A stretch of DNA of 64,000 nt from Bradymonadia bacterium (GCA_046290225.1 JBKAGE010000037.1:192001-256000), one strand, 5' to 3'; counted from the stretch's first letter, positions 1 to 12,023 are shown. The notes: generated from the sequence alone by a model not told the origin. Translations and numbers: made by a program.

Positions 1-376
1 GCCGGAGGGTGATGCCCGCATGATCACCGCCCGCCCACTCGGGGATCACCCCCTTCGACAGAGGCGTGTCGAGGCTGAGCATGCCCTTGTCCACCATGAT
101 GCCGATGCCCAGCGCCGCCACGGACTTGGTCACCGACATGGCCATCACGGCCGTCTCGGGATCCGCACCGAAGTACTCTTGAACGATGGGCTTGCCCTTG
201 TGGAACACCACGAGCGCGGTGCTGTGCTCGGCCTTCGCCTTCGTCTTCAAGCGCGCGAGGGCCTTGGCGTCGAGGCCTGCGTGGCGTTTGGGGGCGCTCC
301 ATGCCGTACTCGACAGCACGAGCGCTGCCAGCACCATCCAGAACTGAATCGTAGATGCGGTGTTTCGGGTCCTCAT
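1..376 (-). CDS. Serine hydrolase, beta-lactamase/class C-like family, secreted (runs off the window edge)
   Basis: Not in the ORF track. Manual translation from ATG 376 gives MRTRNTASTIQFWMVLAALVLSSTAWSAPK...ALVVFHKGKPIVQEYFG...MAMSVTKSVAALGIGIMVDKGMLSLDTPL, with a signal peptide and the SxxK motif (SVTK). Confidence 0.8.
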   Translation of the reverse strand, partial: MRTRNTASTIQFWMVLAALVLSSTAWSAPKRHAGLDAKALARLKTKAKAEHSTALVVFHKGKPIVQEYFGADPETAVMAMSVTKSVAALGIGIMVDKGMLSLDTPLSKGVIPEWAGGDHAGITLR

Positions 377-472: not shown

Positions 473-877
473 ATGATCACGAGCTCACGACCTCGGGAGA
501 GACCCCTGCGCGCCCTCACCCTTTCGTGCTGGCTGCTGCTGCTCGGCTATGGTGCCGGGCTGGTGGTCCACGCCCACGACGAGATCACCGAGACCTTCGA
601 CGTCGACGTCAATGGTCGCGTACACCGGTTTCCCGTGCACACTGATGACGGGGAGATCATCGATCCCCGGGTGGGTGATCTGCGCACTGAGCGTTGCCAG
701 CGGCGGGGGCACGAGGCCACCCTCGCGCGATACCAGGATCGCACCGTATTGATCGTCGGGCGCTCTCATACCCGTCCCCTCATCTTCGATCCGCAACGTG
801 GCGTGGTCCTGCTCGAGCAGTCCGCCCCCACGCCAGAGCCCATCGCTGGAGATCAGGAGCCTCTCAGGTGCCCTTGA
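473..877 (+). CDS. Small exported or membrane-anchored hypothetical protein
   Basis: 3' part of ORF 20..877 from ATG 473; hydrophobic N-terminus (LTLSCWLLLLGYGAGLVVHA); stop overlaps the start of the lnt-like gene. Confidence 0.55.
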   Translation: MITSSRPRERPLRALTLSCWLLLLGYGAGLVVHAHDEITETFDVDVNGRVHRFPVHTDDGEIIDPRVGDLRTERCQRRGHEATLARYQDRTVLIVGRSHTRPLIFDPQRGVVLLEQSAPTPEPIAGDQEPLRCP

Positions 878-2298
878 GCGCGCTTCAAAGATGGGCCCTG
901 GTGGTGCTCTCGGGCTACCTGACAGGGACAGCCTTCATCTACACCGGCGGCGCCGCCCTCGTCGCCAACGTGCCTCTGTTCTTCGCCTTGAGATCTCGAG
1001 ATCGAGAGGGTCGAACCATCCGTGGCTTCGAAGCCGCGCTCATGGGTGGCCTCGTGGGCTTCATGGGTGGGCTGCACATCTACGGCATCCTCGACTACGG
1101 GTGGTTGCTGCTGTGGGGGTTCGCCCTCTACACCGGCAGTCAGATGGCACTCTTCGGCTGGCTGCTCCATCGGCTGTGGGGGCGCTCGCGGTGGGGTGAC
1201 ATCCTGTTGCCGGGTCTCGCCTGGGCTGTGAGCGAGTGGATCCGGACCGTGGGGGTGTTGTCGATGCCGGCGAGCTATGTGGGCTGCATCGCCGACGTGA
1301 GCTGGCTGAGGCCCTGGCTGGCCCTCGCCGCGGTCACTGGCGGGATCGGTGTGAGCACCCTCATCGGGGTGTTCCAAGGGGTGTTCTATTTCGGGATTAC
1401 GTCCTCGACCCATCGCACACCTGCAGGTGTCATCTTGCTCGTGTTGATGGGTGTGGGGGCGTGGGGTGCCATCGCTCCGCCACCTTTGGGTGAGCAGCCG
1501 GTGAAAGTGGCCGGCGTGCAAGGGGGCCTGCCCAATCACGTCTATGCAGGCGCTCAAATCGACCCCCTGCTGATGGAGGCGGTCATCGAGGCGTATGGCC
1601 CGCTGACCCAAGAGGCGGCCACCTCTGCTGATCTCGTCGTCTGGCCTGAGACCGCGGTGCGCACCAAGGTGCTGGGCAGCCCGGATCTCGAGGCGCGTCT
1701 GCTGCCCCCTGCCGACAGTGATGCCACCCTCGTCGCGGGCCTGGCGGTGGTCACGCCAGATGGCCTGGAGCACAACCGGGCGGTGGCCGTGCATGGTCGA
1801 CAGGTGGTGAGCTTCAGCGACAAAGTCCGCCTCGTACCGGGCCACGAGGCCCGATTCACCCCCGGAGAGCGCTGGCAGGCCATCGACACCCCAGTGGGCC
1901 CGGTGGGCGTGATGATTTGCCTCGAGTCAGTGTTCCCTGATGCAGGGCGCGCCCTCGCTGCCGACGGCGCCGAGCTATTGCTGGTCATCAGCAATGACGC
2001 CGGCTTCCGTCGATCGCCCATCGCCCGGCACATGACGTTGCGGGCAGTGGTTCGGGCGGTCGAGACCGGGCGCTGGCTGCTCCGCGTGGGCCAATCTGGT
2101 GTCACCACCCTCATCGATCCCCGCGGGCACACCCACGGCGAGTTGCCCCTCTTCTCTCACGGCATTCTCTCCGGCACGGCGCACCGGCTCCACCATACGA
2201 CCCTCTATGTGGCATGGGGTGACTGGTGGATGTATCTCGTATTTTCAGGTCTATTTTGGTTGTCCTTTCGGACTGTCTCACGCAAGAGACACGACTGA
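868..2298 (+). CDS. lnt: Apolipoprotein N-acyltransferase (Lnt-like: membrane domain plus nitrilase/CN-hydrolase domain)
   Basis: Multi-TM N-terminus with EWIR; VQGG; catalytic triad contexts VVWPE, DKVRLVP, MICLES; ISNDA and RAVETGR motifs. GTG 868 follows AGGAG. Confidence 0.85.
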   Translation: MPLSALQRWALVVLSGYLTGTAFIYTGGAALVANVPLFFALRSRDREGRTIRGFEAALMGGLVGFMGGLHIYGILDYGWLLLWGFALYTGSQMALFGWLLHRLWGRSRWGDILLPGLAWAVSEWIRTVGVLSMPASYVGCIADVSWLRPWLALAAVTGGIGVSTLIGVFQGVFYFGITSSTHRTPAGVILLVLMGVGAWGAIAPPPLGEQPVKVAGVQGGLPNHVYAGAQIDPLLMEAVIEAYGPLTQEAATSADLVVWPETAVRTKVLGSPDLEARLLPPADSDATLVAGLAVVTPDGLEHNRAVAVHGRQVVSFSDKVRLVPGHEARFTPGERWQAIDTPVGPVGVMICLESVFPDAGRALAADGAELLLVISNDAGFRRSPIARHMTLRAVVRAVETGRWLLRVGQSGVTTLIDPRGHTHGELPLFSHGILSGTAHRLHHTTLYVAWGDWWMYLVFSGLFWLSFRTVSRKRHD

Positions 2299-2391
2299 AC
2301 CGTATTGGAACAACCATAAAATTGCTTCACATCTCTGACACTGGCCACTAAAAACACCAGCATCCAATCTCGTTGTATTCCATGAGGTCGA

Positions 2392-2904
2392 ATGAGCGGG
2401 TCTGATGACCATTGGCGTCCCCCTGGCCATGATCTGGGCCTCCCTGCCGCGACCCCATTTTCGAGTCGCCCGATGCTGCGTGTCCTCATCGCCGAGGATG
2501 ATGCCCTCAACCTGAACATGCTCACCCGCATCATGGAGCACCTCGGCTTCGAAGTGATCTCTGCAGGGACCGGTGAGCAGGCGGTCAGGCAATTTCGCGG
2601 GCAGCACATCGATCTGGTCTTGATGGACATCCAGATGCCCGAGATGGACGGCATCGAGGCCACGATCCAAATCAGGCGCTTGGAAGAGCGCGCGTTGGTG
2701 AAGGCGACCGGTCAAATCGGGCCGACACCCATCATCGCGGTCACCGCCAACATCGATCCCTATACACGCCGTCGTTGCCTCGAAGTGGGCATGACCGAGT
2801 ATCTCAACAAGCCGATCCGCAAGCAGACGATCGAGCTCCTGCTGACTCAGCTCTTTCCACGCTGGCGGCCGAGAGCACCGCTCAACAGGCGCCCCACCCA
2901 GTAG
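2392..2904 (+). CDS. Single-domain response regulator (CheY-like receiver); start may be ATG 2473
   Basis: VLIAEDD, DLVLMDIQMPEMDG, PIIAVTA and YLNKP motifs. Confidence 0.9.
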   Translation: MSGSDDHWRPPGHDLGLPAATPFSSRPMLRVLIAEDDALNLNMLTRIMEHLGFEVISAGTGEQAVRQFRGQHIDLVLMDIQMPEMDGIEATIQIRRLEERALVKATGQIGPTPIIAVTANIDPYTRRRCLEVGMTEYLNKPIRKQTIELLLTQLFPRWRPRAPLNRRPTQ

Positions 2905-3746
2905 AGCACTGCGAACATTGGCAGGAACACGATGATGGCGCTGCCCTCGTGCCATGGTCCCATGGCCAGCGCGTCTCCCCCATAGTGACCCAACAGACAA
3001 ATGATGGCGATTCGCAACGCGTTGGCGCCAAGGGCCATGACCGGGATGATGGCCTGCAACGCCACTCGACCGAGGATCGTACGCTGACTGGCCCACCCAA
3101 AGACCAGGCCGAAGAGCGTGAGGGTGATGAGCATGTTGATGCCACTGCAGGTCTCGTTGACCACCACCCAGTATCGCGGGGTATAGACCCCGAAGACTTC
3201 CCAGACCTTGCCCTCGTACCCCGCCACGTCGAGCAACCATGCGGCCCATTGAGCGCTCCACCTCTGAAGCACGGGGTCGAGATCTCGCAGGGCCCACTCC
3301 CAGGGCAACACGAAGAGCGCCACCAACATCGGGATGACCACGGCCCGAGCCCTCGGGCTGCCCTGGGCGCCCCACACCAGCACGAGGGTACCGAGTACAC
3401 AGCCCACCCCGGCGATCAGCATCCACCGTGCGCCCTCTCCAGGGTGCAGCCAGAGCGCCGACATGGTGCATGCCCAGATCAGGGCGAACACGACATGCGC
3501 GGCCCGGTGGGTACCGCTGGCCACTTCGGGCCACTGCGGCTGGCGTCGAATGATGAGAAAAAGGGCCAAAGCTGCAGGCAGGGCCATGACCCCAGCACCC
3601 AGGCTGCTGAGCGCAGTCCGAGTCCAGGTGAGAGCGGCCCACCGCAATACGATGATCGTGGGGATCGCCAGCAACACGCCGGCGAGGAGGGTGTGGCTCA
3701 GCGGCCACCGGGGAGCGCTCGAAGGCTCAGCGCTCAGCCTGGGCAT
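2847..3746 (-). CDS. Exosortase/archaeosortase family intramembrane transpeptidase
   Basis: About 8 TM helices; catalytic Cys in VVNETCSGINML, Arg in GANALRIA, His in GPWHEG (Cys-Arg-His triad of the exosortase family). Confidence 0.9.
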   Translation of the reverse strand: MPRLSAEPSSAPRWPLSHTLLAGVLLAIPTIIVLRWAALTWTRTALSSLGAGVMALPAALALFLIIRRQPQWPEVASGTHRAAHVVFALIWACTMSALWLHPGEGARWMLIAGVGCVLGTLVLVWGAQGSPRARAVVIPMLVALFVLPWEWALRDLDPVLQRWSAQWAAWLLDVAGYEGKVWEVFGVYTPRYWVVVNETCSGINMLITLTLFGLVFGWASQRTILGRVALQAIIPVMALGANALRIAIICLLGHYGGDALAMGPWHEGSAIIVFLPMFAVLYWVGRLLSGALGRQRGKS

Positions 3747-3951
3747 CCTCGAGGGCTCGACGCTTCAAGGCGCTGCGCACCGCCCAGGTGGCCGGCACGC
3801 TGCCGGCGAGCATCATGGCCCACATGCCAGGCTCTGGCGCTCCGCCGCCACCACCGCCCCCGGGAGGGCCACCGCCGCCGCCGGCCCAAGCGAGAGCGGG
3901 CACCACGAGGCTGGTCAGCGCGAGCAGGAGATGTGAAGTGTTCAGGCGCAT
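3727..3951 (-). CDS. 74-aa Gly-rich micro-protein with PEP-CTERM-like sorting signal (probable dedicated exosortase substrate)
   Basis: AGGAGG RBS 6 nt before ATG; signal peptide ending AWA; core G5-P2-G7; APEP motif, hydrophobic segment, then KRR; overlaps the exosortase start by 20 nt. Confidence 0.8.
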   Translation of the reverse strand: MRLNTSHLLLALTSLVVPALAWAGGGGGPPGGGGGGGAPEPGMWAMMLAGSVPATWAVRSALKRRALEDAQAER

Positions 3952-4041
3952 GGTCGACCTCCTGACGAGTTGTCGAGGGCTCAGAGTAGCACAATGTGAT
4001 CGCGCGGTGTCAGTGAGCAGAGCATCCCAACGGATCTCTGC

Positions 4042-4716
4042 TCATGGCCGCCCCCTGCCGGTGAGCCGGGCCATCATCTGATCGAGCCGCGCCACATGAT
4101 CGTCCACTGAGGCATTGAGCGAGCGCTTCATGTACCGGGCGTTGCCGATGGCGGTGAGGGTGGCCTTGTACCTCTCATCGGCAGACTGATCCGTGAACAC
4201 AACCAGTGGGATCGGCCCGAGGCCCCAGCTGGGCTCGATGGCCCGCAGCCCCAGGGCGGCGTCGAGGGGATCCAGGGTGGCCTCGTCACCGCTCAAGAAG
4301 ATGAGCCCGGGCTTTCGGCCGGCGCTGAGAGACTTCACCGCCTCGGTGAGCATGATCGCCGGGGTCTCGAAAGACCGCACCGTGCCCGCCCAACCTGCTT
4401 CGACGAACCGGCTGGCCACGGTGCCCGTGAGCAAATCGCCGAATTGCACCATCCACACTTCGTCGAGCAGCGCTTTGGACGCCTTGGGTGCTGGGGTTTG
4501 AGGTGGCGGCGTGTGCCGCTTGGGCGCAGGCATCTGGGGGGTGCCTCGCGGGTTCACCCCTGTCGTCGAGACATCGACCACCACCCCACACACAGTGCAC
4601 AGCGCTACATAGCGATCGCCGTCGTTGATCACCCGCACCAGGGGCGGCTCTGCTCGCTGAGCACAGTCGTGCACGATGGACGGCGGCGCACGATCGTAGA
4701 GATTGAACGCGCTCAT
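4042..4716 (-). CDS. Putative Zn-ribbon plus atypical receiver-domain protein
   Basis: N-terminal HDC...CTVCG, Pro-rich linker, then a receiver-like fold (PGLIFLSG...IPLVVFT...YMKR) with Ser at the phospho-acceptor Asp position. Confidence 0.55.
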   Translation of the reverse strand: MSAFNLYDRAPPSIVHDCAQRAEPPLVRVINDGDRYVALCTVCGVVVDVSTTGVNPRGTPQMPAPKRHTPPPQTPAPKASKALLDEVWMVQFGDLLTGTVASRFVEAGWAGTVRSFETPAIMLTEAVKSLSAGRKPGLIFLSGDEATLDPLDAALGLRAIEPSWGLGPIPLVVFTDQSADERYKATLTAIGNARYMKRSLNASVDDHVARLDQMMARLTGRGRP

Positions 4717-5129
4717 GCCGCACCTCCGACGAGCCGCTCCACAGCCACCGAGAGGGTCCGGGCCAGGGCCATGGCCGACTGCCCTTCAGTCTTTTGAAGA
4801 TAGACGGCGCGGCCCAGATGGGCGAGGCGCTGCTCGGTCTCTGGCCCCGCGGGATAAGCGGAGAGCACCAGGATCGGACACGGCTCGGCCTCGAACCCCG
4901 CCTCGACGGCCCGAATCATCTGACCGGTGGCCCAGGCCTCTGGCCGCATCTGGGACAAATCGAGCACGGTGAGCGCCAGAGGTGTCCGAGCCTTCAAGGC
5001 CGCGGTGACCCCCTCGAGACACTCCAAACCATCACTGCACACGACGAACTGAGCGTAGCTGGGCTCGAGGCGCCCCATCTCCAGGGCCAGCTGAGCCTCG
5101 TCAGTGGCCACCATAACCTGCCTCGACAT
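4713..5129 (-). CDS. Divergent stand-alone receiver-domain protein
   Basis: VMVATDE, SDGLECL, LTVLDLS, PILVLSA and YLQK; ATGA overlap with the downstream gene. Confidence 0.65.
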   Translation of the reverse strand: MSRQVMVATDEAQLALEMGRLEPSYAQFVVCSDGLECLEGVTAALKARTPLALTVLDLSQMRPEAWATGQMIRAVEAGFEAEPCPILVLSAYPAGPETEQRLAHLGRAVYLQKTEGQSAMALARTLSVAVERLVGGAA

Positions 5130-5133
5130 GTGC

Positions 5134-7302
5134 TCACCCTCCCTGGCTGCTCAAAGTGCTGATCATCATGGTCATGTTCACCGCCAGGTGGGCGACGAAC
5201 GGCGCCACCAGGCCGCCGGACCGCCACGCCAGCGCGGCATAGGCCATGCCCGCAAAGCCTGCGATCTGGGTCACCTCGATCAGGATCTGAAAGATGTCGC
5301 CTCTGAGGATCGACATGAACGACATGTGATAGAGCCCGAAGAGCAGGCCGGTGATCAGCACCGCCATCTCCGGCCGTTTGAGGGCACGGCTCAAAGCCGT
5401 ATAGATGAAGCCCATGAAGAAGAGCTGCTCGGCGGTCACGTGGATCAAGGTCATCAACAACACGGTGGCGCCACCGGCCACCTGCTGAATCGGGGTGAAG
5501 AAGCCCACCGCCAGGCCATACACCGCTGCGACGCCGATCCACTTGAGATCTTCGCCGAGCACCTCGGGGCCGGCCTTCTTGTTGTTGAGCCACCTCAATC
5601 CCAGGACGCCGACGCCGATGAGCACCAGCCGCCTGATCCACCACCAGATGTCGGAGATCACATAATAGTATTCCTGATTCCCAAGCTTTCGCAGGTCCTG
5701 GGGCCAGGGATCTCCACCGACAGGGGGGCTCGCCGAGCCGCCTGGGAGCAGGTTGGCGCCGACGAACATGAGCAGGAACACGGCGAAGAAGGCCGACATG
5801 GCGGGCACCATCATCGACGCATCGTGTACCGGGGCCCGCTTCTTGTTCGGCGGACCGAGCCGGGTGCTCTGTTTCGAGGTCTTGCGCTTTACGGTCTTGC
5901 CGCCGGTGAGCGACAACGTGGAACGGCTGCTCTTCTTTTGCACCCGACTGGTGACGAGGCGCAGCTCGCTGCGGGCCTCGGTGTTCCTCGGGTTCAGCTC
6001 GAGGGCCATCTTGAGGGCCTTCTCGGCCTGCTCTGCCATCCCCGCGAGGCGATAGATCTTGCCCACATAGAGCAGCGGGGCGTCCATGTCGGGGGCCACG
6101 TCCATGGCCCGGCGCATCCGCTTCGCCGCCTTCTTTGCTGCGGTCTCGTCTCGCTCGCTGCCCAGGAACGCGCTCCACGCGTAGTTCACGTGGGCCATGG
6201 GATCCTCGGGCACGAGCTTGACGAGGCTGCTGAAGCGCAACGCCGCAGCCTCGTAATCCCCTGCTTCGAGGTGGCGGCGGCCTTCGGCGGCCACATGGCG
6301 CACCGTGAGCTTGCGCATCACCTCTTCATCTCGTGGGTCCTGCCCCAGATCGAGGGCCTCGGCACAAATCAGACGACGCTCGTCGTCGAGCAGGCATCGA
6401 TGAGCCTCGTCATAGAGGGCCTTCAGCGCTTTCTGATGCTCACCGGAGGGCAGCCCCTGCAGGGCCGCGCGATATGCAGCTTCGACCTCCTCGGCGGTGG
6501 CCTCGGGGGTCACCTTGAGGCGGGCGAAGAAGTCGAGGGCTTCGAGTGCCTGTACTGGCCCTGCAGGCTTCGACACCTCAGGGCTCGGCGTCGCCACGGG
6601 CAAACCAAAGGCGAGGTGGCCGCTACGCCAGAGGGTCATCAGCTTGCGCATGGCCTCTGGAGGCTCGAGAGCCATCACCCGGCACACGGCGTCGACCTGC
6701 CCCTGCACGCTCTCCTGGGTGCGGGTGGCCACCTCGGCGAGGGAGGCCCATGCAGCGGGGAGGTTGTCGAGGCCCATGTCGGGGTCGACAGAGAAGACCC
6801 GGCGCTCATCAGGCAAAGCGTCAACGAGGGGGCTGTTGAGATCGAGGAGCACCAGCGGATGCAAAGTAAAGGCAGCCCGCTCGCGCTCATAAGTGCGATC
6901 TTCGATGAAGCGCGTCTCGCACTGAGTGAAACTGAGCAATGCCTCGAGGCGCCACAAAATCAGCATGCTCAGCACCATGGGCTGGGCATCTGCCGGCAGG
7001 ACCTTCAGGGCCTGTGCCCAGGGCACCCGACCCTGAGAGAGCACCTGTCGTGCGGTGTCTTGCTCGATGAGGCCATTGTCGACGAGCCGCCTCAGCCAGG
7101 CGCCTCTCCGAGCATCCTCCACTGATCCTTCGAAATGGATCGGGTAGCCCGACCGGAGCATCACCTCGACCTCGTCGCCCTCTTGCAGGGTGACGCGCAG
7201 TCGGCCGGTGGCTCGATTGCGATAGGCCCGGAATAGGGCATCGGCCACCGGTGAGGTGTGGACCAGCCCCGCGAGGGAGGACTCCGGCGTCAGGATACTC
7301 AA
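5134..7302 (-). CDS. DUF4388-like / DnaJ-like / TPR / CPBP (CAAX protease, Abi) fusion membrane protein
   Basis: ATGRLRV...LRSGYPI (DUF4388-like); DFFARLKVTPEATAEEVEAAYR (J-like); TPRs (ALELNPRNTEAR); C-terminal TMs with AEQLFFMG, FGLYH and HLAVN CPBP motifs. TTG start uncertain. Confidence 0.75.
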   Translation of the reverse strand: MSILTPESSLAGLVHTSPVADALFRAYRNRATGRLRVTLQEGDEVEVMLRSGYPIHFEGSVEDARRGAWLRRLVDNGLIEQDTARQVLSQGRVPWAQALKVLPADAQPMVLSMLILWRLEALLSFTQCETRFIEDRTYERERAAFTLHPLVLLDLNSPLVDALPDERRVFSVDPDMGLDNLPAAWASLAEVATRTQESVQGQVDAVCRVMALEPPEAMRKLMTLWRSGHLAFGLPVATPSPEVSKPAGPVQALEALDFFARLKVTPEATAEEVEAAYRAALQGLPSGEHQKALKALYDEAHRCLLDDERRLICAEALDLGQDPRDEEVMRKLTVRHVAAEGRRHLEAGDYEAAALRFSSLVKLVPEDPMAHVNYAWSAFLGSERDETAAKKAAKRMRRAMDVAPDMDAPLLYVGKIYRLAGMAEQAEKALKMALELNPRNTEARSELRLVTSRVQKKSSRSTLSLTGGKTVKRKTSKQSTRLGPPNKKRAPVHDASMMVPAMSAFFAVFLLMFVGANLLPGGSASPPVGGDPWPQDLRKLGNQEYYYVISDIWWWIRRLVLIGVGVLGLRWLNNKKAGPEVLGEDLKWIGVAAVYGLAVGFFTPIQQVAGGATVLLMTLIHVTAEQLFFMGFIYTALSRALKRPEMAVLITGLLFGLYHMSFMSILRGDIFQILIEVTQIAGFAGMAYAALAWRSGGLVAPFVAHLAVNMTMMISTLSSQGG

Positions 7303-8103: not shown

Positions 8104-9987
8104 ATGGTCAAGTGCCCCAAATGCGGGACCCCTGCCCCCACGGAAGCCAACTTCTGCGGAATGTGTGGCAGCACTCTGCGCACGGATGAGCCTCCTGTCT
8201 CTCCACTCTCCCGAGCCACCCCTGTGCCCGGGCAGGCACCAGTGTCGCCGAGAGAGACCCGCAGCACTGTGATGATGGGCAGCCTGCCCGTCGGCGTGAA
8301 AGAGGCCAATACGCGCACATCCCGTCGCAGCAGCACCGAGCTGGGCCCCCCCAACTTGCTCGCTGAAGAGACGGCACCCTCGGAGCTCCTCGCGGAGGAA
8401 ACCCCTCTGGGCCCCCCGAACGCATTGGGCAAGGACACACTCTTCGACGGCAGCATCAAGCCGCCTCTCGAAGACGAGAGCGTGCTCGGCCCGACGATGA
8501 TTTTGTCGGAGGGGCAGAAAGCCCTCGAGTCGTCACCTCAAGAGGCCGCCCCTCAAGAGGTGTCGCCTCGAGACACTCTGGTGGCGCAGGCGTCACCTCT
8601 GGCGGTATCGCCTGCGGCAGATGCCCACGACGATGTCGCTCCAGAGCCGGCCACTGAAGAGACTCACATGCCCTCCGAAGCCGATGGGCCACCGGCAGAT
8701 GAGGCGGACACCTCAGCCGAGGCGGCAACATCAGAAGACGGCGTGGCAGAGAAGGCCATGATGGCCGAGCTGTCTGTGGCAGAGGCCCCTGTAGCCGAAG
8801 CTGGTGTAGCCGAAGCTGGTGTAGCCGAAACAGCTGTCGAGCCGGCGAGCAGTCCCTCTACGCCCGAGGATGCCCACCCTGCAGATGATGCCCCGGCAGA
8901 GGCAGAAGACGGCCCTCTGGACACAGCGGCAGAGCCCATGCCCGCAGTGCCGTCGGCGGCCACCCAGCTCGATGTCGTGGCGGCGAGCCTCCCCGAAGAG
9001 CACGGGCCGGGCGACACCACGCCTCGGGTCGAGGCCCCTCTCGAAGAGAACCCGACACTCGCCGAGATTGCTGCAGAGCCTGCGCCTGCATCTGCGCCAC
9101 AGGGCGTTGAAGACGAGCCCCCAGAAGATGCGCCCTCAAAAGATGCGCTGGGCCACGAGCCCACAGCCCCTCCAGAGGCCGCCATGGCCGAGGCGGCCTC
9201 ACCGGGCGAGGACACGGGCTCACGAGATGCTGTCGAGCCCGACACAGCTGAGCCTGACGAAGCAAAGGCCGATCCGGCAGAACCTGATGAGCCAGAATCT
9301 GATGAGATGGGGTCTGCTGGAGAAGATGTCGATGGGCAGGCACCCGAGACAGACACCCAGGCCACAGAGGCCGAGTCGAACGACAGCGGCATCCAAATGG
9401 GCACTCAGTTGCCCTCTCAGACTGATGTAGAGCCTGCCTGGGTCAAAGCTGAGGCAGAGTCCAGGCCTGCCCCGGCCACAGTGCCAGATGAGCCTGTGAT
9501 CCCTCAGCAAGAGTCTTCTGACGATGCGACAGAGGGCGAAGGATCTGATGCTCAGGTGTCTGGTGAGGCCGGCAACGACAGCACGGCCTCAGATGGCAGC
9601 CCCTCTGATGGCGAGCACGAGACTTCACAGGCAGATCCCTCGGAGGATGGCGAAGCAGCACCAGGGAAGGGCGGTCGTTTCCGAGAGACCTTGTGGTTCA
9701 TGGAGTCTCTCGATCCCGAGAACATGGCCGCCCACGACGGCGATGATCCCGAGGCCATCAACGCGCACTACGATCGCGAAAAAGAGAAGTCGGTGGACGA
9801 AGGCACCCGCCGTCAGTTCTCATTGCAGTCGAAAGAGCCCCCAACACAAACGCAGATGCACCGCGCCGTGAAGGCCCTCGAGTCCGAGCCTGAGGGCAAG
9901 CGCAGCAACCCCCTCGTGCCCGTGTTGATCCTGCTCGCTGCCGCTGGCATCGGCGTGGCGGTCTGGCTCATGACCCGCGGGGGCTGA
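8104..9987 (+). CDS. Zinc-ribbon protein with long acidic disordered region and C-terminal TM anchor
   Basis: CPKCG...FCGMCG at the N-terminus; E/A/P/D-rich linker; short motif FRETLWFM; C-terminal hydrophobic helix; AGGA RBS. Confidence 0.8.
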   Translation: MVKCPKCGTPAPTEANFCGMCGSTLRTDEPPVSPLSRATPVPGQAPVSPRETRSTVMMGSLPVGVKEANTRTSRRSSTELGPPNLLAEETAPSELLAEETPLGPPNALGKDTLFDGSIKPPLEDESVLGPTMILSEGQKALESSPQEAAPQEVSPRDTLVAQASPLAVSPAADAHDDVAPEPATEETHMPSEADGPPADEADTSAEAATSEDGVAEKAMMAELSVAEAPVAEAGVAEAGVAETAVEPASSPSTPEDAHPADDAPAEAEDGPLDTAAEPMPAVPSAATQLDVVAASLPEEHGPGDTTPRVEAPLEENPTLAEIAAEPAPASAPQGVEDEPPEDAPSKDALGHEPTAPPEAAMAEAASPGEDTGSRDAVEPDTAEPDEAKADPAEPDEPESDEMGSAGEDVDGQAPETDTQATEAESNDSGIQMGTQLPSQTDVEPAWVKAEAESRPAPATVPDEPVIPQQESSDDATEGEGSDAQVSGEAGNDSTASDGSPSDGEHETSQADPSEDGEAAPGKGGRFRETLWFMESLDPENMAAHDGDDPEAINAHYDREKEKSVDEGTRRQFSLQSKEPPTQTQMHRAVKALESEPEGKRSNPLVPVLILLAAAGIGVAVWLMTRGG

Positions 9988-9988
9988 C

Positions 9989-10438
9989 GTGAGGCCGTTG
10001 AAGCCACAACTGCTGCTCGCGCTGGTGCTCCTCACGGGTTGCCGCGACAGCCCCATCGAGGTCATCGAAGGGGCCAGCATCGCCGCCGCTGACGGCGATC
10101 AGTCGAACTTTCGATCGTACTTCAGCAATGGCACTGTGCAGCGTCTACGGCGCAAATGGGCCCTCACCGGTGAAACCCCGGAGGCACACTGGCGTCGGCT
10201 CGCCGAAGGGCTCACCTTCGGGCAGCGCTCATTTGCGGAAGATGGGGTGAAATTCGCCGGTGAGGCGATCCATGGGGAGTACGCCGAGGTGACCGTGTCC
10301 CTCGGCGCTGAGTCGAGATCGTATTATCTTCGAAAAGAAGATGGTGCCTGGCGCATCGATTTGGGCGCCGGACAGCGCTATCGTCTTGCAGCCCCCTCCA
10401 CGTCACCCGACGCCGGGGCCAAGAAGAGTCAAGAGTAG
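9989..10438 (+). CDS. Lipoprotein, hypothetical (NTF2/DUF4878-like C-terminus)
   Basis: Lipobox LLTGC; GEYAEVTV...LRKEDGAWRI pattern. Confidence 0.7.
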   Translation: MRPLKPQLLLALVLLTGCRDSPIEVIEGASIAAADGDQSNFRSYFSNGTVQRLRRKWALTGETPEAHWRRLAEGLTFGQRSFAEDGVKFAGEAIHGEYAEVTVSLGAESRSYYLRKEDGAWRIDLGAGQRYRLAAPSTSPDAGAKKSQE

Positions 10439-10460
10439 TCATGAGCCTTCAGGAGCAACC

Positions 10461-12023
10461 ATGATCACCGTCGCCGTCGCAGCCGCCGCTGCCGCCGTGG
10501 GTGGCGCCACCGTGATCGCCCTCGATCGCAAGCGCACGGCCGATCTTCGCGCCGACGCCGAGCGCACCCGAGGTGAGCGCATCGCCGAAGCCCAGGCAGA
10601 GGCAAAGCGTATTCAGGCGACGCATCTCGAAGACGCCCAGGGGCGACTCGAGTCCATGCAGGCCCGAAACACCGCCGACTTCGAGGCCTGGTCCAACACC
10701 CTCGACCAGGAAGAGGTCCGTCTGACACAGCGCAGCGAGACCCTGGAGCAGCGCGCAGAGCAGTTCGAAGCCCGAGAGGCGGAGCTGCAGACCCTCTTCG
10801 ATGACTTCAAGAGCCGTCGGGAGGCCCTCAAGACCTCTCGAGAGGCCCTCGAAGCCCAAGAAGCGCGCATCGAGGAGACCCTCGAGCGCCTCGCGGGCTC
10901 CACCCGACAGGACATCTCCGACAGCATCGGCGAGGAGATGGTGCAGCGTGCCCGCCTCGCTGGCCGTCGCCGCCTGCACGATGACGAGGCCCTCATCGTC
11001 GCTGCAGCAGAGCAGCGAGCCCGCCGGCTCATCGACGTGGCTGCTCAGCGGTATGGCTCCGCTCTCCCCGCGGACCGGCTGGTGTCCACGGTGAACCTGC
11101 CCTCCGACAAGGGGGCGCGGGGTCGCCTGCTCGCCGACAACCGGGCGCTGCTCTCGGCCCTCACCGAGGCCACCGAGGTGGAGTTCGTCACCACCGAAGA
11201 TCAGAACACGCTGTTCATGCAGGCCCCTGATCCCTTCACCCGGGAGATCGGGCGACTGTCGTTCAACCGCCTGGCCAAATCGAAACGCGCCTCCGACAAA
11301 GAGGTGATCAAGATCGTCAAGTCGGTGGACACGGAGCTGCACAACGTGGTGCGCAAGGCGGGCAAGCGCGCCGCCCGCATCTTGAAGCTCAAGAAGATGC
11401 ACCCCGAGATCTCCGAGCTCGTGGGCAAGCTGTTGTATCGCACCAGCTTCACGCAGAATCAGTGGCAGCACGCCATCGAGACGGCTTTCTTGTGCGGGAT
11501 GATGGCCGACGAGCTGGGGCTGCCGGTCATCGAGGCCCGCAGAGCGGCGCTGATCCACGACATCGGCAAGGTGCTCTGGGCAGAGACAGAGGCTGTGGGC
11601 AGCCACGCCGTGAGCGGCGCGGCCTTTGCCCGAGAGCGCGGTGAAGATCCGGCGATTTGCCACGCCATCGCCGCCCACCACGACGACGAGAAGCCCTCGA
11701 CGCCCCTGGCCCACCTCGTCGCCGCCGCCGACGCCCTGAGCGGCGCACGCCCCGGCGCTCGACGGGAGATGCTGGAGAGCTACACCCGCCGGGTGGATGA
11801 TCTCGAGCGCATCTCCTCCGACTTCCCAGGTGTCGAAAAAGCCTATGTGATTCAAGGTGGTCGCGAGCTGCGCCTCATCGTCGATCACCGCAAGGTGGAC
11901 GATCTCGCAGCGGCGACGCTCTCGTCGGAGGTGGCGCACCGCATCGAAGATGAATGCGTCTATCCAGGCCAGATCAAAGTCACCGTGATCCGAGAGACCA
12001 AGTTCAGCTACACCGCCCGCTGA
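10461..12023 (+). CDS. rny: Ribonuclease Y (HD-domain endoribonuclease), divergent KH domain
   Basis: N-terminal TM plus coiled coil; QNQWQHAIE, ALIHDIGK, AADALSGARPGARRE, IQGGRELR, YPGQIKVTVIRE; ATG 10461 after AGGAG. Confidence 0.9.
   Translation: MITVAVAAAAAAVGGATVIALDRKRTADLRADAERTRGERIAEAQAEAKRIQATHLEDAQGRLESMQARNTADFEAWSNTLDQEEVRLTQRSETLEQRAEQFEAREAELQTLFDDFKSRREALKTSREALEAQEARIEETLERLAGSTRQDISDSIGEEMVQRARLAGRRRLHDDEALIVAAAEQRARRLIDVAAQRYGSALPADRLVSTVNLPSDKGARGRLLADNRALLSALTEATEVEFVTTEDQNTLFMQAPDPFTREIGRLSFNRLAKSKRASDKEVIKIVKSVDTELHNVVRKAGKRAARILKLKKMHPEISELVGKLLYRTSFTQNQWQHAIETAFLCGMMADELGLPVIEARRAALIHDIGKVLWAETEAVGSHAVSGAAFARERGEDPAICHAIAAHHDDEKPSTPLAHLVAAADALSGARPGARREMLESYTRRVDDLERISSDFPGVEKAYVIQGGRELRLIVDHRKVDDLAAATLSSEVAHRIEDECVYPGQIKVTVIRETKFSYTAR

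Follow-up and report, generated by a model that had tools for sequence, protein, structure and literature searches.

A co-inherited exosortase, micro-precursor and second Lnt-type N-acyltransferase in a Bradymonadia genome and its relatives: a candidate lipopeptide pathway

Introduction

A dedicated exosortase serving a tiny cargo is a design that is already known. The genes for XrtJ and its substrate are adjacent, and the PID-CTERM proteins that go with XrtY are short secreted substrates with a sorting tail. Here we describe a locus of comparable design in a stretch of 64,000 nucleotides from a Bradymonadia bacterium (GCA_046290225.1, JBKAGE010000037.1:192001-256000; the whole stretch is termed the window, and coordinates without further label refer to it). 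It contains the gene for a 74-residue precursor, an exosortase of an unnamed subfamily and a second Lnt-type N-acyltransferase, Lnt2. An earlier note on this DNA had pointed to the exosortase and its minimal poly-glycine substrate and had overlooked the co-inherited Lnt2. In a number of uncultured kin of the myxobacteria precursor, exosortase and Lnt2 are inherited together and, with roughly even chances, form a periplasmic pathway that would lead to a lipopeptide of about 15 residues.

Cleavage by ArtA depends on ethanolamine-lipid synthesis, and a mechanism has been proposed in which a thioester is formed and then resolved by a lipid amine (PMC7157517). One-step transpeptidation by exosortases is still unproven (10.1101/2023.06.07.544157), and two further reports treat other exosortases (PMC10936215, PMC12188702). 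AatD is a Lnt homologue that acylates the N-terminal glycine left by signal peptidase I, on substrates that begin with a mixture of glycine and serine (PMC7943197, PMC8689077). A single glycine is sufficient, additional glycines raise the yield, and an exchange of glycine for glutamate abolishes acylation (PMC7943197). Among lipidated RiPPs (peptides made by the ribosome and modified after translation), diacylglycerol (DAG)-RiPPs use a lipobox cysteine and the housekeeping Lgt/Lsp/Lnt enzymes (PMC13056109), while selidamides, lipolanthines and goadvionins are acylated by GNAT enzymes (PMC13647313).

The micro-precursor is a conserved gene

The features of the window are collected in Table 1. 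The earlier note had described the precursor gene as carrying a perfect ribosome-binding site and as encoding a 23-residue signal followed by a G5-P2-G7-A core with mixed glycine codons, and this description agrees with the sequence: the signal ends in A-W-A, and GGC, GGT, GGG and GGA all occur in the core. The overlap with an exosortase bearing an intact Cys/Arg/His triad was also correctly stated; the two reading frames share 20 nucleotides and lie on the same (minus) strand. PEP motif, hydrophobic helix and KRR are all present, with the correction that KRR does not follow the helix directly, since a moderately hydrophobic segment of 17 residues with one proline is succeeded by R-x3-KRR. The signal segment contains no lipobox cysteine. 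In an alignment of 28 precursor sequences Ala23 of the signal is invariant and Ala21 is at least 90% conserved, and cleavage would be expected after A-W-A on the basis of this A-x-A motif. In the same alignment the Glu-Pro of the tail is at least 90% conserved and the proline of the helix is invariant; the tail of the window precursor stays below the TIGR02595 and PEPxxWA cut-offs.

Table 1. Features of the window around the exosortase locus
Feature	Position	Strand	Basis or remark
ORF, presumably a serine beta-lactamase-like hydrolase	2-376	-	motif
Small membrane-anchored protein, C39-like fold predicted	473-877	+	stop overlaps Lnt2 start
Lnt2, second Lnt-type N-acyltransferase	874-2298	+	Glu/Lys/Glu/Cys motifs; TIGR00546 155.8 (cut-off 132.9)
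CheY-like single-domain receiver	2392-2904	+	overlaps 3' end of exosortase gene by 58 nt
Exosortase, unnamed subfamily, 299 aa	2847-3746	-	PF09721, TIGR04178
Exosortase triad, His266	2949-2951	-	
Exosortase triad, Arg245	3012-3014	-	
Exosortase triad, Cys200	3147-3149	-	
Precursor gene, 74 aa (signal, core, PEP, membrane helix, basic tail)	3727-3951	-	ORF call and homologues
PEP-CTERM-like sorting tail (PEP motif, hydrophobic segment, basic tail)	3730-3837	-	sequence
Hydrophobic segment of tail	3778-3828	-	
PEP motif	3829-3837	-	
Core, 15 aa, G5-P2-G7-A, predicted mature peptide	3838-3882	-	sequence; 15-17 aa in 56/59 homologues
Predicted Sec/signal peptidase I signal, 23 aa, A-W-A at end	3883-3951	-	sequence; cleavage inferred
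Shine-Dalgarno AGGAGGT	3957-3963	-	5 nt ahead of precursor ATG
Candidate -10 element TG-n-TACTCT, precursor's own promoter, weak in this genome	3983-3988	-	score 6
Atypical receiver-like gene	4042-4716	-	upstream of precursor; conserved neighbour in the order
Atypical receiver-like gene	4713-5129	-	upstream of precursor; conserved neighbour in the order
DUF4388/J/TPR protein fused to Rce1-like (CPBP) membrane domain	5134-7302	-	catalytic motifs degenerate
Zinc-ribbon protein with long acidic linker	8104-9987	+	
Predicted lipoprotein	9989-10438	+	
Gene presumably RNase Y-like	10341-12023	+	motifs

Related loci stem from metagenome-assembled genomes labelled Myxococcota, Myxococcales, Bradymonadia or merely 'bacterium', and from metagenomes. 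We compared 44 exosortase loci, some of them near-duplicates and four of them without upstream DNA; in 35 of the other 40 a micro-ORF lies directly upstream of the exosortase, so that the conservation beside orthologous exosortases on which the earlier note had made its proposal depend is indeed found. Of the 113 genomes of the class 38 have the exosortase, and in all but one of these (37) a broad precursor model detects the gene. It is located directly upstream in 29 of the 38 (two of these copies are degenerate and accompanied by an intact copy elsewhere), remote in eight and missing in one, and it has been kept even where it was relocated to another contig.

In six pairs of close homologues, which are not independent of each other and from which a seventh pair of unequal length was left out, 45 synonymous and one non-synonymous codon changes were counted in the core, as compared with 29 and 24 in the signal. 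A Shine-Dalgarno sequence matching AGGAGG in at least five of six positions precedes 24 of 33 homologous precursor genes, and a sigma-70-like promoter scoring at least 9 is present in 13 of 29 homologous upstream regions versus 3.3% of shuffled sequences. The upstream region in the window itself reaches only a score of 6, and a scan of positions 2200-4300 for consensus promoters and terminators found none. A chance reading frame might be suspected, as the sequence is of low complexity, the genome has a GC content of 64% and the precursor passes no family cut-off; given its near-universal presence in exosortase genomes, the almost exclusively synonymous change in the core and the conservation of Shine-Dalgarno sequence and promoter, this explanation is close to inconceivable. 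The 74-residue precursor is a real, conserved gene.

Among the 75 exosortase-negative genomes the precursor model gave five weak matches, none of which proved to be a micro-precursor upon inspection: one is a membrane protein with a glycine-rich start, two are lipoproteins and two are long proteins with ordinary PEP-CTERM tails. Long proteins of the latter kind are encoded at L168:2-1156 (+) and L170:1-990 (+) in two genomes without the present exosortase; at L170 the contig ends with a fragment of a different exosortase downstream of this gene. In two genomes that belong to the same genus, a degenerate copy with a very short core is found beside the exosortase (L061:8512-8703 (-), L090:835-1053 (+)) and an intact one on another contig, reflecting either duplication with decay or a second product. 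A further genome (G074, 7% contamination) contains an additional precursor, in which PEP is replaced by PAP, together with a second Lnt2 fragment and CPBP fusions in three copies (L171:4294-4605 (-), L177:3-1187 (-)).

A single-substrate exosortase outside the named subfamilies

The exosortase is a multi-helix membrane protein that passes the models for the exosortase/archaeosortase superfamily (PF09721, 103.3 with a cut-off of 25.7; TIGR04178, 52.6 with a cut-off of 23). Across 12 homologues no exchange is seen at Cys200, Arg245 or His266, and the three triad motifs were found in 44, 43 and 43 of the 44 loci, the single miss being due to a truncated ORF. Scoring against the named Xrt/Art models, which the earlier note had proposed as a check, placed the protein below every cut-off (XrtA 76.7/208, XrtB 31.3/275, XrtV 70.8/313, TIGR02602 57.3/105.55), and eight homologues from four families fail as well. 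In the class the enzyme occurs in 28 genomes of family f1, three of f2, five of f4 and two of f5; it is single-copy in all 31 genomes of the order and the only exosortase in the 99%-complete genome studied here. The next-best exosortase in the phylum sample, in genome G113, has neither a precursor nor Lnt2 nearby.

No second substrate was found in the genome with TIGR02595 (0 matches), two family tail models and a loose PEP-tail pattern; the latter gave 16 matches, of which only the window precursor has a PEP tail. The one-enzyme/one-substrate pair postulated in the earlier note thus stands, and the count of other PEP-CTERM proteins that it had called for came out at zero. Prediction of a complex between exosortase and mature precursor yielded a score of 0.59 against 0.00 for the best control in runs with a contact agreement of at least 54% and a partner pLDDT of at least 65, which amounts to weak support given the calibration, in which 116 of 157 solved pairs attained the mark as against two of 215 mismatched ones, with only 18 of the 157 but both mismatched pairs at scores up to 0.60. 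A Foldseek search of the Protein Data Bank with the exosortase model (pLDDT 83.7) gave no match at E 0.001.

Lnt2 is inherited with exosortase and precursor

The housekeeping Lnt of this genome is encoded on another contig and is distinct from Lnt2. The Lnt2 gene lies beside the exosortase gene, usually in convergent orientation, in 40 of the 44 loci (39 by separate neighbour clustering). With the f1 profile at E 1e-30 it is detected in 37 of the 38 exosortase genomes and in none of the 75 others, counts that come from kin which are not independent. The lone positive genome missing Lnt2 is 77% complete, with its exosortase at a contig end. By the coordinates, 32 of the 38 genomes, all of them from f1, f4 or f5, have Lnt2 no more than about 1 kb from the exosortase; the Lnt2 profiles of these three linked families are only 28% identical and gene order differs between them. 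In f2 precursor, exosortase and Lnt2 are scattered yet all retained. Each of four system-positive genomes has two Lnt genes; of the seven negative genomes searched, five have a single Lnt gene and two lack a match at E 1e-15. The high-quality f3 genomes G031 and G047 have no TIGR00546 match at this threshold, which is unusual for lipoprotein-bearing diderms.

In a quick tree of 15 sequences Lnt2 forms a clade of its own apart from the housekeeping Lnt proteins (SH-aLRT 97). Its homologues retain the Glu/Lys/Glu/Cys catalytic motifs, and relative to a solved Lnt they are shorter by about 19 residues after the second Glu, a segment that we take to be the gating arm. A quick RpoB tree of 17 sequences, in which two genomes have a second divergent rpoB and the f2 branch is long, places the positive family f5 as sister to the negative family f6 (97) and f1 plus f2 apart from f4 and f5. 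The shared pattern of the trio therefore needs several joint losses or gains. Comparison of Lnt2 with plasmids gave, among the 15 of 227 records listed, only matches to ordinary lnt at about 30% identity.

These findings bear on the possibility that precursor and exosortase constitute a plain sorting pair of the XrtJ/PExPT-CTERM type, in which the tail would be exchanged for a membrane lipid to give a C-terminally anchored short peptide with a free N-terminus, with Lnt2 as a neighbour by history that acts on other proteins. In the Atlas, the clusters closest to the precursor consist of XrtJ targets (0.90, 155-161 shared features), which we treat as a lead only, and ArtA processing requires ethanolamine-lipid synthesis (PMC7157517). 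Precursor and exosortase also share one strand, many homologous precursors have a promoter of their own, and the N-terminal residues of the core differ between families. A plain sorting pair leaves unexplained, however, why a separate Lnt clade tracks the exosortase and is adjacent to it in three families, and why the first glycine of the core is near-invariant. We consider it unlikely, though it deserves to be kept in view.

Short cores that vary between families

Core sequences were surveyed in 59 distinct cores of the f1 type, three database proteins that could not be parsed having been dropped and one further being mis-cut. The first residue is glycine in 57 and alanine in two, the first three places are occupied by glycine, serine or alanine only in 56, and 56 are 15-17 residues long. 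The overall composition is 57% glycine, 15% serine, 11% alanine and 9% proline; the first proline is located at position 6-9 in 56 of the 59, and the tails read PEP, SEP or AEP in 58. One database protein, P0324, has a core of six residues. The cores of f4 comprise six to seven residues and start with asparagine in three of five cases (and in one paralogue), all three f2 cores have glutamate directly after the A-x-A site, and the single f5 core is proline-rich. What stays constant across the family is a signal predicted to be cleavable, a core that is short and flexible, and the xEP tail; oligoglycine is not among these features.

A free N-terminal oligoglycine acting as nucleophile had been one of the options of the earlier note, and as a family trait it is not supported: the core starts with GGG in only 19 of 59 cases and with GS in 35, and asparagine and glutamate starts occur in the sister families. 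The related proposal, that the exosortase acts as a transpeptidase linking the core's N-terminal amine with its C-terminus to form a head-to-tail cycle or, less likely, a polymer, can draw on the intact Cys/Arg/His triad, on the precursor as sole substrate found and on the proline, which could provide a central turn between two flexible arms and is present in the cores of six to seven residues as well. Apart from the variable core start, this proposal has to cope with the co-inherited N-acyltransferase: acylation by Lnt2 would cap the very amine needed for polymerisation or cyclisation, and this weighs on the nucleophile idea. One-step transpeptidation is, moreover, unproven for exosortases (10.1101/2023.06.07.544157), and we regard ring closure or polymerisation as quite improbable.

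A possible lipopeptide pathway

The reading that we prefer for the trio is a short sequence of periplasmic steps. The precursor would be exported via Sec, and signal peptidase I would cleave behind A-W-A and so expose a glycine with a free amine at the N-terminus. Meanwhile the core would be kept on the periplasmic surface of the inner membrane by its PEP tail. Lnt2 may then move a fatty acyl chain from a phospholipid onto the core amine in the manner of AatD, possibly assisted by the neighbouring C39-like protein, which might bind the unfolded glycine-rich core. Finally, the exosortase cysteine would cut at or near PEP, so that the acyl-peptide is either released or receives a lipid amine, for instance phosphatidylethanolamine, in exchange for its tail. 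An envelope lipopeptide would result, and with respect to the cargo of about 15 residues and its RiPP-like lipidated fate our best reading coincides with one of the options of the earlier note. As a signal read by the neighbouring CPBP/receiver module the lipopeptide can be envisaged only tentatively, and a structural role at the surface is about as likely.

Several observations weigh against this pathway. Core acylation and tail cleavage are predicted from sequence and precedent, and Lnt2 is likened to AatD by published description. The strongest result against an AatD-like reading for the whole family are the cores starting with asparagine in f4 and with glutamate in f2; in the latter, a later cut after A-E-G would rescue acylation. 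Two f1-type cores start with alanine. Lnt2 is encoded on the strand opposite to precursor and exosortase in most loci, which means that it shares no operon with them, and in f2 the three genes are unlinked. The kinship of the genomes tempers the co-occurrence, and in one exosortase-positive genome of high quality (G079, 96% complete, 770 contigs) no precursor was found. Other secreted proteins starting with glycine, of which a crude signal scan that missed the known precursor returned 31 among 528, could be substrates of Lnt2. As for the neighbours, the C39-like gene is simply order-wide in its distribution, its copy in the window is devoid of an internal stretch of about 37 residues, and weaker homologues of the CPBP fusion occur in 10 of 13 genomes of f6, a family without the trio.

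Neighbouring genes

Every one of the order's 31 genomes has the C39-like gene; the remaining 82 genomes of the class were searched and gave no match. C39-like domains bind leader peptides or unfolded glycine-rich peptides; the fold alone shows no function. For the model of one homologue (L021, pLDDT 92) the best structural match has a Z score of 9.5 (rmsd 2.5, 104 residues aligned), and the top four VIA matches are all C39 or C39-like domains (Z 8.9-9.5, rmsd 2.4-2.7, 98-104 aligned). Foldseek with the C39-like protein returned nothing at E 0.001, and an Atlas search with the window protein gave no usable feature match. No cysteine or histidine is conserved among 16 sequences, so the catalytic C39 residues are absent.

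Of the 38 exosortase genomes 35 contain the CPBP fusion, and each of the four families has members in which it is a neighbour of the exosortase; it keeps this place even in f2, where precursor and Lnt2 have been relocated. Five f6 neighbourhoods of its homologues contain no exosortase, Lnt or precursor. An assignment of the fusion as myxosortase was rejected (NF040914, 21.8 bits with a cut-off of 100); the true myxosortase of the genome is encoded on another contig (G000:C35:221123-221434, 147.3 bits). The persistent neighbourhood of the fusion raises the question whether function could reside in the tail within the membrane or in the cleavage event itself. The precursor would then be a small regulatory membrane protein whose cutting is registered by the CPBP/J/TPR protein and the receivers, and the core a mere spacer. 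The well-conserved tail with its invariant helix proline and the shortening of the core to six or seven residues in f4 and to six in P0324 are compatible with such a role, yet purifying selection acts more strongly on the core than on the signal (45:1 versus 29:24), CPBP homologues persist in the family without the trio, and Lnt2 would again be unexplained. We regard regulatory cleavage as very improbable.

For the two receiver-like genes a weak PF00072 match was obtained with one homologue and none with the window copies. The CheY-like gene between Lnt2 and exosortase was matched nearby in only four of 44 loci and thus looks like an insertion in this lineage. The C39-like gene is succeeded in 27 of the 44 loci by the gene of a Ser/Thr kinase that bears PEGA and FGE-sulfatase-like domains (e.g. 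L008:6779-8824 (-)); the window has the ORF at 2-376 in this position. Of the genes further upstream, the predicted lipoprotein and the presumed RNase Y-like gene are syntenic in two to three of 20 larger loci.

Comparison with known systems

Four uncultured families carry the trio in almost all of their sequenced genomes, and it therefore probably has a basic role in the envelope or in social biology. Exosortases are widespread, and whether they catalyse transpeptidation in a single step has yet to be settled (10.1101/2023.06.07.544157); the model of the present enzyme was matched by no solved structure. With a stand-alone enzyme of 299 residues and one mature substrate of 51 residues, the system is small enough to be convenient for studying where the cut is made and what the acceptor is. 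Should Lnt2 act on the core, it would represent a lineage of N-acyltransferases for non-cysteine substrates outside the enteric Aat system, and the tiny exosortase substrates of the XrtJ and XrtY types would suggest themselves as precursors of small lipopeptides instead of sorted proteins. Taken as a whole, the pathway would be a hitherto undescribed ribosomal route in which signal peptidase I, a dedicated Lnt paralogue and an exosortase produce from the precursor a peptide of 6-17 residues that is N-acylated and may carry lipid at its other end too. The PEP-CTERM tail would serve as a handle in the membrane that is later discarded, the C39-like domain, without catalytic activity, would present the peptide as an adaptor, and the receptor would be the CPBP pseudo-protease with its signalling domains; for this full scheme we put the chances at somewhat below even. 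In the literature searched, with most subscription papers outside it, we found no description of the present subfamily or of a pairing of exosortase and Lnt paralogue.

Lipidated RiPPs share with the present system a gene-encoded short peptide from which a signal or leader is removed and to which a fatty acyl group is added, the acylation being predicted in our case. By co-inheritance alone, a short conserved precursor together with tailoring and cleaving enzymes is found here as well. The accounts of DAG-RiPPs and of GNAT-acylated RiPPs, as far as accessible, name neither an exosortase nor a dedicated Lnt paralogue (PMC13056109, PMC13647313).

AatD with its substrates CexE/Aap from enteric E. 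coli resembles Lnt2 as a Lnt homologue beside a housekeeping Lnt, with the same four catalytic residues. Its substrates are cut by signal peptidase I and begin with glycine in a Gly/Ser-rich stretch; of the predicted cores here, 57 of 59 of the f1 type would likewise begin with glycine, but three of five in f4 begin with asparagine and all three in f2 with glutamate. The difference lies in the cargo: what AatD acylates are folded, soluble proteins that leave the cell through the Aat system, whereas the candidate here is a core of 6-17 residues with a PEP membrane tail and an exosortase. A transporter like AatPABC was not seen among the conserved neighbours within 3-8 kb, the search being confined to these flanks.

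XrtA/XrtB with PEP-CTERM proteins and ArtA belong to the same protease family and have the same triad and a tripartite tail with PEP. XrtA/XrtB differ in that many PEP-CTERM proteins are present per genome, as opposed to one substrate here, and at 299 residues the present enzyme has no EpsI fusion; no polysaccharide locus was found among its conserved neighbours. XrtY/PID-CTERM of Bacteroidota (NF046083) is set apart by score (14.3 with a cut-off of 160) and motif, which is xEP here and not PID.

The closest resemblance in design is to XrtJ/PExPT-CTERM of Acidobacteriota (TIGR04199, TIGR04200, PF27850), again a dedicated exosortase with a substrate of 60-70 residues that consists of a signal, a very short core, a PExP-type motif and a helix. 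The XrtJ model, however, comprises 522 positions compared with 299 residues here, the phylum is different, and the loci described here are linked to Lnt2. The window exosortase is not matched by TIGR04199 (cut-off 200), two homologues reaching 18.9 and 39.4, and the window peptide is not matched by TIGR04200 (cut-off 40), which matched one of nine homologous peptides at 14.7. With XrtJ targets as the nearest Atlas clusters, the present system appears to work like XrtJ/PExPT-CTERM without being a member of it, and it is a real, as yet unnamed exosortase/micro-substrate system with a probable acyltransferase partner.

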